DNA of 64,000 bases, taken from the sequence record ON528731; one strand, written 5' to 3'. A program made the translations under genes and the position numbers. This stretch comes from Shigella phage ESh21. Shown piece by piece: positions 13,066 to 44,685 of the stretch (the first letter of the stretch is position 1; each line of letters starts with the position of its first letter). The notes beneath the pieces were generated by a model. That model saw nothing but the letters and a program-made list of their open reading frames with translations. It was not told where the DNA came from and did not search any database.

Positions 13066-13078
13066 AAGTATATGATTA

Positions 13079-13107
13079 GGGAACTGTAAAAGGTTCCCTT
13101 TTTATTT
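13079..13107 (+). terminator. rho-independent terminator
   Basis: GGGAAC-loop-GTTCCC + TTTTTATTTT. Confidence 0.65.
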
Positions 13108-13916: not shown

Positions 13917-14798
13917 ATGAAAACTATTATTAGTGTACTGTTACACTCACGTAAAAAAGGTGCTCACCAAGAAGAGTTCAACATTATCCAGTTTCCGTCT
14001 GGAGAAATTGGTGGTAACTTCTCAGAAGACCTAGTAGCCTATGCTGAACAGAATGCTTCCCAGATTGAGAATGTAATCCTCACTGTACAGGGTTACGACA
14101 AAGATACTCTGTTTGCTTTAGCTCTGGCGAAAGAAGCTATTGACAAACTAATTCCTCAGAAATCAACTATGAAGACTGCTGTATTTGGCTTCTTACCAAA
14201 TGCTCGTTATGACCGTCACATGTTTAAAGGTGATGCAGCAGCATTGAAAGTCTTTGCAAATCTGGTAAATGCTATGGAGTTTGATGCAGTATGTGCTTTA
14301 GATACTCACAGCAACGTAGCAGAGAACTTGTTTAAGTGCTTCCATAACCTGCCCCAGAAAGAAGCAGCAGTACACTTTGCAAGTGACCCACGTATTGATT
14401 TCTTAGTGGCTCCAGATGCAGGTGCAGCCAAGAAGACTGAAGAGGCTGCTAAAGAGGTTGATAAGCCATATATCACAATGGCTAAGATTCGTAATCTGAA
14501 AACTGGTGAAATCACTGGTATGCGAATCCTTGATGATGTAGACTTAACTGGTAAAGCTGTCATGATTCTCGATGATATCTGTGATGGTGGTCGTACCTTT
14601 GTAGAAGCTGCAAAACATCTTCGTGAAGCTGGTGCAAGCCGTGTAGAACTTTATGTAACTCATGGGATTTTCTCAAAAGGTGTTGAAAATCTTCTTGACA
14701 ATGGCATTGACCATATCTACACTACAAACTCGCTAGGGGATGCTGAAGACCGTGGTCTGAATCAGTTCTCACAAGTAACTGTAGCAAACATTGAGTAA
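13917..14798 (+). CDS. prs: ribose-phosphate pyrophosphokinase (PRPP synthetase)
   Basis: 293 aa; PRPP-binding loop VMILDDICDGGRT resembles the DD(I/L)xDTGGT motif. Confidence 0.8.
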   Translation: MKTIISVLLHSRKKGAHQEEFNIIQFPSGEIGGNFSEDLVAYAEQNASQIENVILTVQGYDKDTLFALALAKEAIDKLIPQKSTMKTAVFGFLPNARYDRHMFKGDAAALKVFANLVNAMEFDAVCALDTHSNVAENLFKCFHNLPQKEAAVHFASDPRIDFLVAPDAGAAKKTEEAAKEVDKPYITMAKIRNLKTGEITGMRILDDVDLTGKAVMILDDICDGGRTFVEAAKHLREAGASRVELYVTHGIFSKGVENLLDNGIDHIYTTNSLGDAEDRGLNQFSQVTVANIE

Positions 14799-14846
14799 TA
14801 AACTTTGAAGGGGCTGAAAAGCCCCACTATTGAGAGAGATAAAATT

Positions 14847-16673
14847 ATGTCTAAATCAGTTTATGCAGTACCAGCAGGTCTTAATGCGGATGCTTACAAA
14901 GCTGGCCATATCTACCAGTACCCAAGTGCTACACAGTATCTGATGCTAAATCTTACACCTCGTGGTGATAAGTGGTTTAACACTCCACTTGATATTGACG
15001 GTGTAGTTGCTTTTGGTATTCAACGTTTCGTTAAAGATTACTTAGTAGACCACTGGAATGCTACCTTCTTTGAACGAGATAAGAAAGAAGTTGTTGACGA
15101 AATCTTAGAAATCATGAACGGTGTTCTCGGTGCAGATGCGATTGGTCGTGAGCATTGGGAAGAACTTCACGATTTAGGCTATCTGCCAGTCGAAGTCTAC
15201 TCTGTAGAAGAGGGTACAGTGGTTCCAATGCGTGTTCCAATGATTATCTTCAAGAATACTGTAGAGGGCTTCCATTGGGTAGCTGGATATCTGGAAGATG
15301 CTTTCTCTGCTGAAATTTGGAAAGCTTCTACGATTGCCACTATTGCATTACACTACAAACGCATCTGTAAGCAATGGGCTGATGTAACCTGTGATAATGA
15401 CTTCCATTTACCTTGGCAGTGTCATGATTTTGCAATGCGTGGTATGTCAGGCTTTACAGATGATGCTTTTAACGCTGTAGGTCACCTGACAAGCTTTAAA
15501 GGTACTGACAGCTTCCCTGCTGTCTACACTGCTAAACGTGCTTATGGTCAGTTTATGGAAGTAAGTGATATCGGCAACTCTGTACCAGCTACTGAACACT
15601 CTGTGATGTGCGCAAACATTTCATGGAATATGAAAGACTTGTCAGAGGAAGATATTCATTCACAGTACATCATGCAGTCTGATAGCTTGCTGGATGCAAA
15701 ACGTTGGCGTGGTGAGGTTAAAACCTTTGAGCATTTACTGGTAGACGTATATCCAACTGGTATTGCAAGTGTTGTTTCAGATACTTACAACTTCTGGCGT
15801 ACTGTTACAGAGATTCTCCCAGAACTCCGTGAAGTTATCCTGAAGCGTGAAGGTAAACTGGTAATACGTCCAGACTCTGGAGACCCCATTCACATTGTTG
15901 CTGGTTATCGTGCTGTTGAGTGGGAAAATGCCAAGAGTATGTTCTACAAACATATGAAAGAAATTGCACCGAACAATGATAAACTCCTGAATCTTATTCA
16001 GTATTGTGAGTTGCAGGATATGGGTTATGGGTTTGCTGCATGGCTTATCTCTGAAGGTTATGAGTTAGTTGTTGATAAAGAAGATTTTGAAACTGCTGAA
16101 ACAGTTAACTTGAAAGATTTTAATAAGACCGGAAATATTGTTGTTAAGCGTATGCTGACAGCAGAGATTGATGGGGCTATCCCAACTCTCTACAACATCT
16201 TTGGTGGTCGTGTGAACAGTAAAGGTTACAAAGTACTGGATGAGCACATCGGTTTAATCTATGGTGATTCTATCACCCTTGAGCGAGCTAATGAGATTCT
16301 TGGTCGTCTTGCTGACAAAGGTTTTGCAAGCTCTAACGTGGTCTTTGGTGTTGGTTCATACACTTACCAGTACCTGACTCGTGATACCTTTGCATTTGCT
16401 GTCAAGGCTACTCTTGCTCAGATGGACGGTGAAGAAATCATGCTGGCAAAAGACCCTAAAACTGACAGTGGTCTTAAGAAGTCTGCTTTTGGTGGTGTAG
16501 TTCCTATGTGTGACGGTGATAAACTGGAAGCTGTAGACGGCTTTGGCTTTGCAGAGTTTGAAGGTGTACTGGATAATCCAGAATGTGCTTTGAAGTTGGT
16601 GTTTAGCAACTCTCAACCATATGGTTATGTAAACCTTCGTGATGTTCGAAATAACATTGACAAACAACTCTAA
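14847..16673 (+). CDS. nadV: nicotinamide phosphoribosyltransferase (NAMPT/NadV)
   Basis: motif VIRPDSGDP characteristic of NAMPT/NAPRT type II PRTases; start 14847 after GAGAGAG preferred over 14805; C-terminal extension relative to typical NAMPT. Confidence 0.8.
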   Translation: MSKSVYAVPAGLNADAYKAGHIYQYPSATQYLMLNLTPRGDKWFNTPLDIDGVVAFGIQRFVKDYLVDHWNATFFERDKKEVVDEILEIMNGVLGADAIGREHWEELHDLGYLPVEVYSVEEGTVVPMRVPMIIFKNTVEGFHWVAGYLEDAFSAEIWKASTIATIALHYKRICKQWADVTCDNDFHLPWQCHDFAMRGMSGFTDDAFNAVGHLTSFKGTDSFPAVYTAKRAYGQFMEVSDIGNSVPATEHSVMCANISWNMKDLSEEDIHSQYIMQSDSLLDAKRWRGEVKTFEHLLVDVYPTGIASVVSDTYNFWRTVTEILPELREVILKREGKLVIRPDSGDPIHIVAGYRAVEWENAKSMFYKHMKEIAPNNDKLLNLIQYCELQDMGYGFAAWLISEGYELVVDKEDFETAETVNLKDFNKTGNIVVKRMLTAEIDGAIPTLYNIFGGRVNSKGYKVLDEHIGLIYGDSITLERANEILGRLADKGFASSNVVFGVGSYTYQYLTRDTFAFAVKATLAQMDGEEIMLAKDPKTDSGLKKSAFGGVVPMCDGDKLEAVDGFGFAEFEGVLDNPECALKLVFSNSQPYGYVNLRDVRNNIDKQL

Positions 16674-16687
16674 CTGAGTATTATAAG

Positions 16688-16710
16688 AGGCTCCTACGGG
16701 AGCCTTTTTA
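16688..16710 (+). terminator. rho-independent terminator
   Basis: AGGCTCC-TACG-GGAGCCT + TTTTT. Confidence 0.7.
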
Positions 16711-20836: not shown

Positions 20837-20852
20837 TTAGTAAGAATCCTAA

Positions 20853-20880
20853 AGGGCTGCTTCGGCAGCCTTTTTTATTT
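20853..20880 (+). terminator. rho-independent terminator
   Basis: GGGCTGC-TTCG-GCAGCC + TTTTTTATTT. Confidence 0.7.
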
Positions 20881-20913: not shown

Positions 20914-21486
20914 ATGTTTAACAAAATAGGAGACCCAATGAAGAAATTCATTTTAGGTTTGTGCTTATTATTAACAGCACATGTTGCTACAGCGTCAGAT
21001 TGTCCAGAACTAACAATTAGCCAGAAAGTTAACATGTTAAAGGCTTACAATTATGGCGAGAAAGAGATGGGACAAGGTTGGGGAATCCCATTAGCAGCTA
21101 TAGCCTTACAAGAGTCACAATTAGGTGTCAAGGTTGTTAATAAAAAGACTCACGATTATGGAGTGTTCCAGAATCATTTGAAGACTGTTGTAAAGCGTAA
21201 CAAGATTTCACCTAACGTTGCAAAGAGAAAGCTTATCAGTGATTTCCATTACTCAGCTAAAGAGGCTCACAAGGAACTTCTTTTCTGGACAAATGTACAT
21301 GGTCACCCAAATGGAAAGTATTCTATGAAGCGTGTCTTAGCATCTTATAATGCTGGTTACAAATATAAGATTCCAAAGGCTAGACAATACTCTCAAGACG
21401 TGTACAATAACATGCAACTGCTTGCTCAATGTGAGTTTGCAACAAACATTAAAAAGGTAAAATATGAGCGAATCAAAACAATTTGA
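20914..21486 (+). CDS. secreted protein with lytic transglycosylase (SLT)-like motif
   Basis: N-terminal signal peptide MKKFILGLCLLLTAHVATA; ALQESQLG...DYGVFQN resembles the SLT catalytic E-S ... GLMQ region. Confidence 0.4.
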   Translation: MFNKIGDPMKKFILGLCLLLTAHVATASDCPELTISQKVNMLKAYNYGEKEMGQGWGIPLAAIALQESQLGVKVVNKKTHDYGVFQNHLKTVVKRNKISPNVAKRKLISDFHYSAKEAHKELLFWTNVHGHPNGKYSMKRVLASYNAGYKYKIPKARQYSQDVYNNMQLLAQCEFATNIKKVKYERIKTI

Positions 21487-22159
21487 TAAGGTGCTGTGTC
21501 ATGCTTATGATATCAAACCTTTGGATTTAGATATCAGTTCTGCAAGCTGGTCAGAAACTGTTAAAGCTGACTTTGCAGATACAGCAAGATATGTTGTGTG
21601 TCGTTTTGAAGATTTTCACTCAACGATGACAAAGATTCCTTGTCAAGATTTGCTAACTGGTAAGACTGTGTATGTAAATCGTAACAGCCTCATCTTAGTT
21701 GCAAAAGACTTAGAAGCAAAACGTAAAATGGTTCTGGCAGATATTGACGGAGTTCTTACAAGCTTTGACAAAAGTCTTAATGCAACCTTGTTAGATGATG
21801 GTACTTACTCACAGTACACAAACTTGGTAGACTCTCACAGGGCTAAACCAACTTATGTTTTTAACATCCTATGTGGAATCTCACAGAATGCTGATATAGG
21901 ATTCTTAACTGCTCGTGGTGAATCACAAAGAGTGGTTACACATCTCTTCCTGAATGAGAACACAGACAGTGACTTCCTACTATTTATGCGTGGATTCGGT
22001 GACAATGAGATTAGTGCAGAAAGTTTGAAAGTTCGTATGCTTCAGTCTTGCATTCTACCTTACTATGATGTAGTATGCTTTATAGAAGATACAGTAAAGA
22101 ACGTGGCAAAGGTCGAAAGAATCCTTCCACACATTAAAACAATGTTAGTTAAAAACTGA
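21464..22159 (+). CDS. hypothetical protein with HAD-like DxDG motif
   Basis: VLADIDGVLTSFD resembles HAD phosphatase motif I. Confidence 0.4.
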   Translation: MSESKQFDKVLCHAYDIKPLDLDISSASWSETVKADFADTARYVVCRFEDFHSTMTKIPCQDLLTGKTVYVNRNSLILVAKDLEAKRKMVLADIDGVLTSFDKSLNATLLDDGTYSQYTNLVDSHRAKPTYVFNILCGISQNADIGFLTARGESQRVVTHLFLNENTDSDFLLFMRGFGDNEISAESLKVRMLQSCILPYYDVVCFIEDTVKNVAKVERILPHIKTMLVKN

Positions 22160-22635: not shown

Positions 22636-22645
22636 GGTTAATATA

Positions 22646-22669
22646 GAGGCTCCTTCGGGAGCCTTTTTC
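22646..22669 (+). terminator. rho-independent terminator
   Basis: GAGGCTCC-TTCG-GGAGCC + TTTTT. Confidence 0.7.
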
Positions 22670-22687: not shown

Positions 22688-23035
22688 ATGACATTTAAAG
22701 AATTTTGTCAAGCTGCTTTTGTAATCATGTTTCTGTTAGGTGTTGGTGCTTGGGGAGGTTATACTTACAAGACCAGCCAAGTTAACGAGAAAGAGTTGAC
22801 TAATCAGAGATTGGTTAGTGTTGCTAAGGATGCTTACCAAGAAGGTTTAGCAAACCTTAGCGCTAATTACAAAAACGATTTGAAAGATGTGCTTGCTAAA
22901 AACAAACACACAAAAGAGGTATTAACTTATGAAAAAACTAAGACAGAGTTTCTTAATATTTGTGCTACTGAGTCTTATGTCAGGGTGTTCAATGAACAAG
23001 GTGAACAGTACCTTCAAAAACTCCCAAGTAAGTGA
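22688..23035 (+). CDS. i-spanin-like protein (N-terminal TM, coiled-coil)
   Basis: 115 aa; TM helix FVIMFLLGVGAWGGY then charged helical region; 3' part overlapped out of frame by a lipoprotein ORF. Confidence 0.4.
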   Translation: MTFKEFCQAAFVIMFLLGVGAWGGYTYKTSQVNEKELTNQRLVSVAKDAYQEGLANLSANYKNDLKDVLAKNKHTKEVLTYEKTKTEFLNICATESYVRVFNEQGEQYLQKLPSK

Positions 23036-23198
23036 GAGTGACAAGTACACTCAGGAAGAAACTAGGTACACTGTCAAAGGTACTAAGGGTGAAGACCTTG
23101 CTAGTGCTATGGAGTTTTATCGTGATGGATTCTATGAATGTGCTATCAAGGCAAACAATTTGATTGATATGATTTTGTTAGGGAATAAGCAGCAATGA
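22929..23198 (+). CDS. o-spanin-like lipoprotein
   Basis: 89 aa; signal peptide with lipobox-like LSLMSGC; starts inside 22688..23035 in another frame (Rz/Rz1-like arrangement). Confidence 0.4.
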   Translation: MKKLRQSFLIFVLLSLMSGCSMNKVNSTFKNSQVSESDKYTQEETRYTVKGTKGEDLASAMEFYRDGFYECAIKANNLIDMILLGNKQQ

Positions 23199-24370: not shown

Positions 24371-25165
24371 ATGGGCATTGTAAAAATCATTAAAGGTGAT
24401 ATCTTTGAAGCCTTTGATAACCAGAAGTTTGATATCATTGGTCACGGATGCAACTGCATGAACTTGATGGGTGCAGGTATTGCAGCAACAATCTCAAAAC
24501 GCTACCCAAAAGCTTATGAGACTGACGCTGAAGTTTATGAGACAGTTGGTGGTGAGAACCATAAACCTGTACATCTTATGCTTGGCAATATCTCTGTAGC
24601 ACGTTTCAAGCAGGGTCGAATTGCTAACCTATACACTCAGGTTATCACTGGTAAAGATGCACGTTACAATGCCTTAGAAGCAGCTTTGCAGCGTCTTAAC
24701 AACTACTGCAAAGTAAACCAGCTTAAGAAGGTTGGTCTTCCAATGATTTGTGCAGGGATTGGTGGTCTGGATATCTTTGCAGTTACTTCAATCATTAACC
24801 AGACAATGAAAGATGTAGACGTTTACCTTTATGTCTATGAAGAAACAATGCACAGACGACTAACCAATAACATAGTTGGTTGGAACAACTACAGTGAACC
24901 TCAACACTTTGATGGTGTCGCAGTTGTGAAGGATAATCAAGTTACACTACGGGTAAAACGGAAGGGTAAGGTGCATAAAAGTAACCCTCCGGTTGAGAAG
25001 TACTCTCTGAGTAACGCTCAAGTTACCCACCCGTTACATGACCACTGTTTGAGAGCAGTAACATTTGGTGACAATGCAAGTGTTTACCTTCTTGCACAAG
25101 ACCATGAAGAAGCTGATAAGATTATCTCTGATAAACGTTTTAGCTTTGTTGAAGCACGTAACTAA
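24371..25165 (+). CDS. macro domain protein (ADP-ribose binding/hydrolase-like)
   Basis: IKGDIFE...DIIGHGCNCMNLMGAGIAATISKRYP and GLPMICAGIGGLD follow the macro-domain GD(I/V)T, N-x6-GGGV, G-x-P-x-I-S-x-G pattern (compared from memory with E. coli YmdB). Confidence 0.55.
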   Translation: MGIVKIIKGDIFEAFDNQKFDIIGHGCNCMNLMGAGIAATISKRYPKAYETDAEVYETVGGENHKPVHLMLGNISVARFKQGRIANLYTQVITGKDARYNALEAALQRLNNYCKVNQLKKVGLPMICAGIGGLDIFAVTSIINQTMKDVDVYLYVYEETMHRRLTNNIVGWNNYSEPQHFDGVAVVKDNQVTLRVKRKGKVHKSNPPVEKYSLSNAQVTHPLHDHCLRAVTFGDNASVYLLAQDHEEADKIISDKRFSFVEARN

Positions 25166-25233
25166 GTAACTTTGTAAAGTATTCACAATAGAGTAAGCCT
25201 TTCTTGTTCTTGCAAACACAAGGTAAGGAGGGC

Positions 25234-25424
25234 TTTTTCATTTCAAAATCGTGCAGATAAAGGTCTATAAAGAAATCTGTAGAGTGAAATCAAAGTCAAC
25301 TCCAAAGGGAAAATTCATTTTCAATTTGTGCAGGTGAACTCCAAAGAGCTTTTTCATTTCAAAATTGTGCAGAGAAAAATCAGGTCGGGCAAGAAAATTC
25401 ATTTTCAATTTGTGCAGGTAGCCA
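25234..25424. repeat. tandem duplicated about 90-bp unit containing TTTTCATTTCAAAAT(C/T)GTGCAGA and AAATTCATTTTCAATTTGTGCAGGT
   Basis: two copies of each sub-repeat at 25234/25350 and 25309/25399, non-coding. Confidence 0.7.
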
Positions 25425-25427
25425 GAT

Positions 25428-25472
25428 ATAGCCAGCCAGCCCCACCACCCCCTCTTACTCCCCTTCCTCCCA
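25428..25472 (-). other. G-rich tract with G-quadruplex potential (C-rich on plus strand)
   Basis: plus strand CCAGCCAGCCCCACCACCCCCTCTTACTCCCCTTCCTCCC; minus strand has four or more G3-5 runs; atypical in AT-rich context. Confidence 0.5.
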
Positions 25473-25671
25473 AAAGTCAAGAGAAAAATTTGTAGCGGAT
25501 TAAAAAATAATTCTTGACTAGTTTTCTGTTTAGTGCTATGTGTACGCGCCCGTTTCATTCACAACATGCCAAAAATATTTTTAAAAATTTGCTTGACTCT
25601 AAAAAACCAGTCTTATAGTATTTGCATCAACGGGAAGCAATCCCAACAATCCTAAACTGGAGATTCAAAAA

Positions 25672-43878: not shown

Positions 43879-43955
43879 CTCTGTTTAGCTCAGCTTGGTA
43901 GAGCGTTCCGTTTGGGGCGGTAAGGCCAGAGGTTCAAGTCCTCTAACAGAGACCA
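43879..43955 (+). tRNA. tRNA-Pro (anticodon TGG)
   Basis: manual cloverleaf: acceptor CTCTGTT/AACAGAG, T-loop TTCAAGT, CCA encoded. Confidence 0.7.
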
Positions 43956-43962
43956 AATTAAT

Positions 43963-44037
43963 GTCGTAGAAGGCAAATGGTTAGCCACCTGACCTTCAAT
44001 CAGTTGCTCGCGGGTTCGAATCCCGTCTACGACTCCA
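43963..44037 (+). tRNA. tRNA, anticodon probably TTC (Glu), tentative
   Basis: acceptor GTCGTAG/CTACGAC, T-arm GCGGG-TTCGAAT-CCCGT, CCA encoded; anticodon loop CCTTCAA has C at position 33. Confidence 0.55.
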
Positions 44038-44122
44038 AATTTGACAGAAGACCAAATACAGCAAACAACTTTTACTTTTCGCGCATAGAAAACATAAAAA
44101 GCTTGGTCTGGTCATTAAGAAT
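44038..44122 (+). repeat. structured inter-tRNA spacer element (family CAGAAGACC...GGTCTGG), copy 1
   Basis: begins right after CCA; conserved ends shared with copies at 44200, 44604, 44685. Confidence 0.6.
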
Positions 44123-44199
44123 CGCGGGTATAGAGAAAGGGCGTCTCACATGTCTCATTAGCATGGCAACGGTTGGTTCGACTCCAACACCCGCCTCCA
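44123..44199 (+). tRNA. tRNA with anticodon CAT (Met or Ile2 or fMet)
   Basis: anticodon arm CATGT-CTCATTA-GCATG, T-loop TTCGACT, CCA encoded; C1-C72 mismatch. Confidence 0.6.
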
Positions 44200-44282
44200 A
44201 ATTTACAGAAGACCGTTTACAGCAATTTAAAAACAATTTTATCGGAAAATTAAAATGAATACGGTCTGGTAATGTTAAACAT
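44200..44282 (+). repeat. structured inter-tRNA spacer element, copy 2
   Basis: AAATTTACAGAAGACCGTTTACAGCAATTTAAA...ACGGTCTGGTAAT. Confidence 0.6.
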
Positions 44283-44359
44283 GGTTAGGAAGCACATAAG
44301 GCATGTGCGGTCGGCTGTTAACCGAATGGCACAGGGTTCGAATCCCTGACTAACCGCCA
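44283..44359 (+). tRNA. tRNA-Asn (anticodon GTT)
   Basis: D-arm GCAC/GTGC, anticodon loop CTGTTAA, T-arm CAGGG-TTCGAAT-CCCTG, CCA encoded. Confidence 0.7.
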
Positions 44360-44369
44360 AAATTTAAAT

Positions 44370-44457
44370 GCGTCGTTATCCCGTAGATGGAAGCGGTGGC
44401 GACTGTAAATCGCTTGTCATTACGACTCGGTAGGTTCGACTCCTTCACGGCGCACCA
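44370..44457 (+). tRNA. tRNA-Tyr (anticodon GTA), long variable arm
   Basis: 88 nt; anticodon arm GGCGA-CTGTAAA-TCGCT; variable stem GTC/GAC; resembles E. coli tRNA-Tyr layout. Confidence 0.6.
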
Positions 44458-44463
44458 AATAAA

Positions 44464-44541
44464 GGTTATGTAGTTTAATCTGGTTAAAATACCTCCCTGT
44501 CACGGAGGAAGATGTGGGTTCGAGTCCCATCGTAACCGCCA
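44464..44541 (+). tRNA. tRNA-Asp (anticodon GTC)
   Basis: anticodon arm CCTCC-CTGTCAC-GGAGG, T-loop TTCGAGT, CCA encoded. Confidence 0.7.
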
Positions 44542-44603
44542 ATTTTGAGAAGGGCTTTTTTAGCCCCTCCCTTAAAGAGTTCTTGTGAGTATTCTTTAAA
44601 GGA

Positions 44604-44685
44604 GCAGAAGACCAAATTCAGCAAGCAACAAAAATATTTCAAGCCAATTAATTTGAAAAATTTAAAACTTGGTCTGGTTCCAACA
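44604..44685 (+). repeat. structured inter-tRNA spacer element, copy 3
   Basis: GCAGAAGACCAAATTCAGCAAGC...CTTGGTCTGGTTCC. Confidence 0.6.

Follow-up and report, generated by a model that had tools for sequence, protein, structure and literature searches.

The protein encoded at positions 24371-25165 of the window (the whole 64,000-nucleotide stretch of Shigella phage ESh21, record ON528731, that was analysed) is very probably a counter-defence enzyme. As judged from the sequence, its macro domain would bind ADP-ribose and hydrolyse whatever sits on ribose C1''. The substrate tentatively favoured here is the ADP-ribose that the toxin DarT2 places on phage single-stranded DNA. An earlier note on this DNA had proposed a candidate eraser of ADP-ribosylation-based host defence. 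Sequence comparison and analogy support this proposal, since the fold and the binding loops are present and the homologues AdfM and Adpp in PHROG 335 act in this manner.

The gene and its source

The open reading frame was found exactly as described earlier, on the plus strand, with an ATG start and 264 codons, the stop being included in the coordinates. The start lies 1 nt past the stop codon of the preceding small ORF, and a ribosome-binding site of the GGAG type is located about 10 nt 5' of it. The parts of the gene are as follows:

24371-25165, plus strand: coding sequence of the two-domain protein (ORF list; ATG start; 264 amino acids and stop)
24371-24838, plus strand: macro domain of the Poa1p/TARG1/DarG class, residues 1-156 (PF01661, AlphaFold2 model, Foldseek)
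24443-24445, 24452-24454, 24638-24640 and 24749-24751, plus strand: key codons of the macro domain, for H25, N28, Q90 and C127, respectively
24839-25162, plus strand: C-terminal orphan domain, residues 157-264, beta-rich with two short helices

The 3-kb stretch round the gene has 99.3% identity to Shigella phage ESh22, in which an ORF encodes a protein 100% identical to that of the window. Suspvirus and Mooglevirus phages, members of the subfamily Ounavirinae, match the stretch at 80-86% identity. By sequence, the source of the window is thus assigned to the Ounavirinae. Orthologues in SUSP1, SFPB, HP1, Sf18 and SapYZU01 carry the annotation 'phosphatase' or 'macro domain-containing protein'. 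When the full protein was used as a tblastn query, related macro domains were found in 2,775 phage records, 268 of which contain the two-domain form (at least 80% query coverage).

Identification and fold of the macro domain

The Pfam Macro profile PF01661 matches residues 25-141 (E 5.4e-7, 30 bits against a cut-off of 22), and PHROG 335, labelled 'phosphatase', matches the whole protein (residues 1-263, E 1e-95). A family profile and an AlphaFold2 model were both built on an alignment of 21 family members. Among PDB entries, the profile matched TARG1 (E 5e-16), Poa1p (1.6e-14) and Mycobacterium tuberculosis DarG (1.2e-12). The full-length model (mean pLDDT 91, pTM 0.88) has the three-layer alpha/beta/alpha macro fold, and its best Foldseek matches in the PDB, all at probability 1.0, are TARG1 (TM 0.87), Thermus aquaticus DarG (0.83) and Poa1p (0.77). 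The agreement of the Pfam match above threshold, PHROG 335, the PDB profile matches and the structural comparison establishes the macro-domain identity given in the earlier note, and the assignment is far beyond chance.

The profile search recommended earlier thus recovered the macro fold, and it confirmed the ADP-ribose-binding loops. Both glycine-rich ADP-ribose/phosphate-binding loops are present, M33-GAGIA38 and I126-C-A-G-I-G-G132, and they align with MGAGIA and IGCGLD of TARG1. The signature read from the sequence alone was largely correct: G9-D10-I11, N28, M33-G-A-G-I-A38 and P124-M-I-C-A-G-I-G-G132 were all found, but the spacing is N-x4-MGAGIA and not N-x6. Purifying selection on the macro domain is strong, with pairwise dN/dS (omega) of 0.08-0.15.

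Characterised relatives and motif classes

Three phage macro proteins with reported functions may be compared with the window protein. T4 Tk.4 (AdfM) was the single hit of a transposon screen on cells expressing DarTG2, and its clean knockout makes T4 sensitive to DarTG2; this evidence is genetic only (10.1101/2025.11.20.689424). [quoted passage not shown] In Vibrio phage Gary, the gene for Adpp lies between those for Adps and Namat, the two enzymes of the NAD+ pathway NARP1; Adpp converts ADPR-1''-phosphate to ADP-ribose. Its product lets NARP1 rebuild NAD+ despite the RES-domain NAD+ phosphorylase aRES, and the H24A and N27A substitutions abolish its function (10.64898/2026.01.28.702374). 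Tk.4 and gp104 are both assigned to PHROG 335, like the window protein.

The residues invariant in the 21-sequence family alignment are G9, I23, H25, G26, N28, G36, A38, N86, T89, Q90, G94, P124 and G129. H25 and N28 align with H24 and N27 of Gary Adpp, and N28 also with N23 of PhiKZ gp104. The catalytic lysine of TARG1 (K84; K80 in DarG) aligns with Gln90 in all 21 family members, and Gln occupies this position in T4 Tk.4 and Gary Adpp as well. The acidic residue D125 of TARG1 aligns with Gly131. Among the Poa1p residues mutated in deposited structures, H23 is kept as H25, whereas S30 and F152 are changed to L32 and G131. The window protein thus belongs to a Poa1p-like, Gln-type subgroup. Human TARG1/OARD1 and yeast Poa1p, the best matches among solved structures by fold and profile, have the N-terminal loop motifs and the Poa1p H23 equivalent in common with it but differ at the positions just given.

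The macro domain of T4 Tk.4 is 35.8% identical to that of the window protein (tblastn E 9e-15). It contains the same HGCNC...NLYTQ...IG(A/C)GI(A/G)GG pattern and Gln at the lysine position, but it is a single domain of 159 amino acids, and the window protein adds a C-terminal domain of 108 residues. The HGCNC...NLYTQ class also includes the NARP1-adjacent protein of Acinetobacter phage phiAbaA1, whereas Gary and Pseudomonas phages carry HQ(C/A)NC...YGQ instead. The identity to the window protein is 34-36% for JG004, phiPsa374 and phiAbaA1, 28.8% for Gary Adpp and 21.7% for PhiKZ gp104. The last of these is likewise an orphan macro domain of a phage, with the conserved Asn, but it consists of one domain only, is imported into the phage nucleus, keeps a DarG-type 'PTK' lysine, lacks the His of HGCNC and matches the DarG profile far better than the window protein does (E 4e-39 against 8e-14).

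DarG of DarTG2 resembles the window protein in that a second domain follows a macro fold of the same class. It differs in its unrelated C-terminal domain, in its catalytic Lys, replaced here by Gln, and in its partner DarT; no DarT gene was found next to the macro gene, the neighbours of which are small phage ORFs and spanins. Only the macro part of the DarG profiles is matched, namely positions 2-153 of 338 in NCBIfam NF048014 (E 1.6e-13, 50.7 bits against a cut-off of 250) and positions 3-147 of 329 in PADLOC PDLC02990 (E 8e-14). The DarG match was considered as evidence for an AdfM function and set aside, as four NARP1-associated proteins of the Adpp type match the PADLOC model equally well (E 1e-11 to 4e-15). 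A MAFFT/NJ tree of 30 macro domains, which has no support values and few characterised anchors, was also rejected as a guide to function; in it T4 Tk.4 clusters with the window protein, but so does the NARP1-adjacent protein of phiAbaA1.

Codon 127 (24749-24751) belongs to the second phosphate-binding loop and reads TGT in the window; the residue is Cys here and in the identical ESh22 protein. Six relatives, one of them only 41% identical, have Gly (GGT) at this position, a difference of a single G-to-T change, and all other aligned family members have Gly. The restriction of this change to the window phage and ESh22, the absence of the TARG1/DarG catalytic Lys and a polynucleotide-kinase-like gene 2 kb upstream (21464-22159) could be taken to indicate a binder or weakened enzyme without a catalytic counter-defence role, or a housekeeping protein that cleans up by-products of RNA repair. 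Such explanations are very improbable. The low omega and the invariance of H25, N28, N86, T89 and Q90 across 21 sequences speak against them, and Cys at 127 is probably tolerated. Other macro classes have Ser at this position, for example SARS-CoV-2 Mac1 with the loop LSAGIFG. To our knowledge, T4-type kinase-and-ligase RNA repair yields no ADPR-1''P, which counts against the clean-up function.

Genomic context and the relation to NARP1

The neighbouring features needed for the following comparison are listed here:

13917-14798, plus strand: Adps, the first NARP1 enzyme, annotated as ribose-phosphate pyrophosphokinase (phrog_619, E 7e-98)
14805-16673, plus strand: Namat, the second NARP1 enzyme, annotated as nicotinamide phosphoribosyltransferase (phrog_448, E 1e-195)
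22645-22666, plus strand: terminator-like hairpin with a 9-bp stem, 5 G-C pairs and a T-run
25191-25242, plus strand: intrinsic terminator, hairpin and U-run ending the macro-gene unit (-20.4 kcal/mol, z -5.0)

The earlier note placed the macro gene in the same block as an NAD+ salvage pair. By their PHROG assignments, the two genes are Adps and Namat of NARP1 and not a classical salvage pair. They lie on the same strand as the macro gene, but 7.7 kb, about 15 genes and three terminator-like hairpins (16685-16708, 20851-20874 after rIIB, and 22645-22666) separate the two loci. The position of the macro gene directly upstream of an orphan-gene island was given correctly. NARP1 was first described in Bas63, a Felixounavirus of the subfamily Ounavirinae. 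In the window, strong terminator-like hairpins flank the pair, one at 13078-13099 and the other, directly 3' of Namat, at 16685-16708, and the pair appears to be a self-contained two-gene transcription unit.

The hairpin at 22645-22666 is probably the upstream boundary of the transcription unit of the macro gene, which would extend from the i-spanin gene at 22688 to the end of the macro gene at 25165. The unit opens with the genes for i-spanin and o-spanin (22688-23198), and six small ORFs, PHROGs 4453, 6082 and 2210 among them, also precede the macro gene. The macro gene, the last of the unit, appears to be co-transcribed with these spanins and small ORFs, which are odd partners for counter-defence. 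The region of the terminator at 25191-25242 is kept in six relatives, and in SUSP1 a stem of another sequence gives the same structure.

The order Namat, rIIA, rIIB, polynucleotide-kinase-like gene and macro gene is kept in an 86-kb metagenomic relative, L006, the macro protein of which is 41% identical. Because the gene order persists at this distance, the nearness to NARP1 is ordinary genome synteny and not an operon. The ORF at 21464-22159, called 'polynucleotide kinase' in relatives, belongs to phrog_3970; in L006 only the HAD phosphatase part is matched, weakly, by PF25109, and the ORF may encode a phosphatase-only protein rather than a full Pnkp. A gene with an HNH/AP2 domain, probably a homing endonuclease, lies directly upstream of the macro gene in L006 (9694-10023) and overlaps its start; the window does not contain it.

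The possible connection with NARP1 leads to the main rival explanation, by which the protein is a phosphatase of the Adpp type. It would convert ADPR-1''-phosphate, formed by RES-domain NAD+ phosphorylases such as aRES, to ADP-ribose, and Adps and Namat would turn this into NAD+, so that a NARP1-AP pathway would act in trans across two transcription units. This explanation is considered somewhat unlikely, though little less probable than the favoured one. In its favour, the phage encodes NARP1, a pathway first found in a phage of its own subfamily. Gary Adpp belongs to the same macro family, the two residues needed in it correspond to the invariant H25 and N28, and among solved structures the sequence is matched best by that of yeast Poa1p, which dephosphorylates ADPR-1''P. 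The NARP1-adjacent proteins of JG004, phiPsa374 and phiAbaA1 are closer still to the window protein than Gary Adpp, and that of phiAbaA1 falls into the same HGCNC/YTQ motif class. Phage records with Adps (252) and with the two-domain macro protein (243), counted at 60% identity or more, are also about equally many; these numbers show that the two occur together in the subfamily, which does not identify a function.

On the other side, Gary Adpp is encoded within the NARP1 operon, whereas the gene of the window lies outside it, behind the hairpins at 16685, 20851 and 22645, and this spacing is kept even in the relative of 41% identity. No phage of Escherichia, Salmonella or Shigella is included among the NARP1-associated macro proteins in Table S1 of the Adpp study (10.64898/2026.01.28.702374), because NARP1 and the macro protein of Ounavirinae do not lie in one operon. 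Gary Adpp further differs in its HQCNC...YGQ motif and in having no C-terminal domain. A small-molecule phosphatase needs no extra 108 residues, and no characterised Adpp has them. S30 and F152 of Poa1p are not kept.

The possible substrate

Both characterised reactions of the family are of one chemical type, in which ADP-ribose is released from thymidine N3 or from phosphate, and sequence cannot decide between the DarT2 adduct and ADPR-1''P as substrate. Removal of DarT2-placed ADP-ribose is preferred, although we hold it at somewhat less than even probability. In this mechanism, a host DarT2 toxin would put ADP-ribose on thymidines of the phage single-stranded DNA, and the macro protein, as an orphan antitoxin of the AdfM type, would strip the adducts; replicable DNA would be restored and ADP-ribose set free.

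Three considerations lead to this preference. The characterised relative nearest by identity and motif class is AdfM of T4, and we know of no NARP1 in the T4 genome; the HGCNC...NLYTQ class therefore has a function independent of NARP1. The macro gene lies outside the NARP1 operon. The added domain is easier to reconcile with a macromolecule as substrate or partner than with a metabolite. The modelled fold, which is closest to TARG1 and DarG, is consistent with DarT2-adduct removal, and the second domain recalls by analogy the two-domain plan of DarG. Further points in favour are the placing of the window protein, Tk.4 and gp104 in one PHROG, the action of gp104 on DarT2-modified DNA together with the match of its N23 to the invariant N28, and the strong purifying selection on the macro domain.

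Several features may argue against DarT2 as the source of the substrate. The Lys and Asp of TARG1 (the Lys also of DarG) are replaced by Gln90 and Gly131, although T4 Tk.4 likewise has Gln. The NARP1-associated macro proteins (34-36% identity) are as similar to the window protein as Tk.4 is. The second domain is unlike the toxin-binding domain of DarG, and the wide range of isoelectric points among orthologues (see below) opposes a conserved nucleic-acid-binding surface. Cys127, at a position that is Gly in the other aligned members, may also weigh against it.

A different ADP-ribose conjugate, or a promiscuous enzyme, is a less probable explanation than either of the above and is considered unlikely. 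The substrate could be ADP-ribosylated RNA (for example, of the CmdTAC type) or protein, O-acetyl-ADP-ribose from sirtuin-type effectors, or an ADPR-derived immune signal; a promiscuous enzyme would accept several of these, the DarT2 adduct and ADPR-1''P among them. Macro domains of the TARG1 class accept several C1''-linked substrates, and PDB depositors name TARG1 both O-acetyl-ADP-ribose deacetylase and terminal ADP-ribose glycohydrolase. The two reported functions of the family, AdfM and Adpp, already differ in substrate, and one NARP1-associated member weakly matches the ThsA macro profile. Against this explanation, no link of the phage family to RNA, protein or signal substrates was found in the searchable literature, and the neighbourhood has no pointer to such a system.

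The C-terminal domain

The earlier note had left about 100 C-terminal residues unassigned, and this was borne out: 108 residues have no Pfam match. The domain folds confidently in the full-length AlphaFold2 model, with a pLDDT of 82.5 when modelled alone, and six or seven beta strands and two short helices are predicted. A profile search of 1.84 billion representative proteins found no relative beyond its own family; besides the family, only two fragments and one spurious retrotransposon polyprotein were returned. A fold search with the domain gave no match, and no similarity to the toxin-binding domain of DarG was detected by sequence or fold search. From these sequence comparisons, the domain appears to be found only in this phage group. 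Its most conserved stretch, N-Y-x-x-P-x-x-F-D-G, is located at the junction of the two domains.

The C-terminal domain evolves 3-6 times faster than the macro domain. Its pairwise omega is 0.28-0.45 against 0.08-0.15, so that selection is purifying in both, and when the window is compared with Mooglevirus and Suspvirus relatives, the domain has accumulated 5-6 times the non-synonymous divergence of the macro domain. Positive selection on the domain was considered and rejected, as pairwise omega remains below 1. A basic nucleic-acid-binding domain was likewise found to be unsupported; the isoelectric point is 8.2 here and ranges from 4.6 to 9.8 among orthologues. Since every characterised relative does without the domain, and since its rate of evolution is several times that of the catalytic domain, our guess is that it engages a macromolecule (a toxin, another host protein or DNA) and takes no part in the chemistry.

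Two bolder ideas, improbable in our estimation, follow from the architecture. In one, the C-terminal domain would be a second, non-enzymatic counter-defence module, which might bind and so inhibit DarT2, aRES or some other host enzyme of NAD+ or ADP-ribose, or might tether the macro domain to its target. The protein would then be an 'enzyme plus inhibitor' antitoxin like DarG, independently invented by phages with an unrelated binding fold. In the other, the macro domain would accept both DarT2 adducts and ADPR-1''P, and the ADP-ribose released would be fed through NARP1 into NAD+, which would link two counter-defences.

Novelty and significance

Macro domains of this kind have been described before, and public records already label the gene as one. 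As far as the literature is searchable, no description of the two-domain architecture with its clade-restricted orphan domain, no combination of Felixounavirus with 'macro domain' and no assay of any Ounavirinae member were found. Macro-domain proteins of PHROG 335 occur in about 2,800 phage records, and their connection with two different defences, DarTG2 and aRES, is very recent. In the Ounavirinae, to which the therapy-relevant Felix O1 group and the model phage Bas63 belong, NARP1 and the macro protein are both present but do not form an operon. The function of this protein bears on the prediction of phage host range from the content of defence and counter-defence genes.

The region downstream of the macro gene

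Between 25166 and 25671 there is a gap of 506 nt without an annotated gene, which is 87% conserved in six Ounavirinae phages and is more conserved than the adjacent C-terminal coding region. It contains, in order, the terminator, a group of repeats, a C-rich tract (about 25432-25470) and two sigma-70-like promoters:

25229-25261 and 25345-25377; 25306-25338 and 25393-25419, each preceded by ACTCCAAAGrG: direct repeat of 27-33 nt, four copies in two alternating variants
25514 (TTGACT) and 25593-25621: sigma-70-like promoters

A search of the gap for structured RNA gave no Rfam match at E values up to 1. The gap may serve the island of small ORFs as a regulatory or early-promoter region. Elsewhere in the window, the plus strand carries a cluster of 25 tRNA genes at 43879-48614, typical of Felix-O1-like phages.
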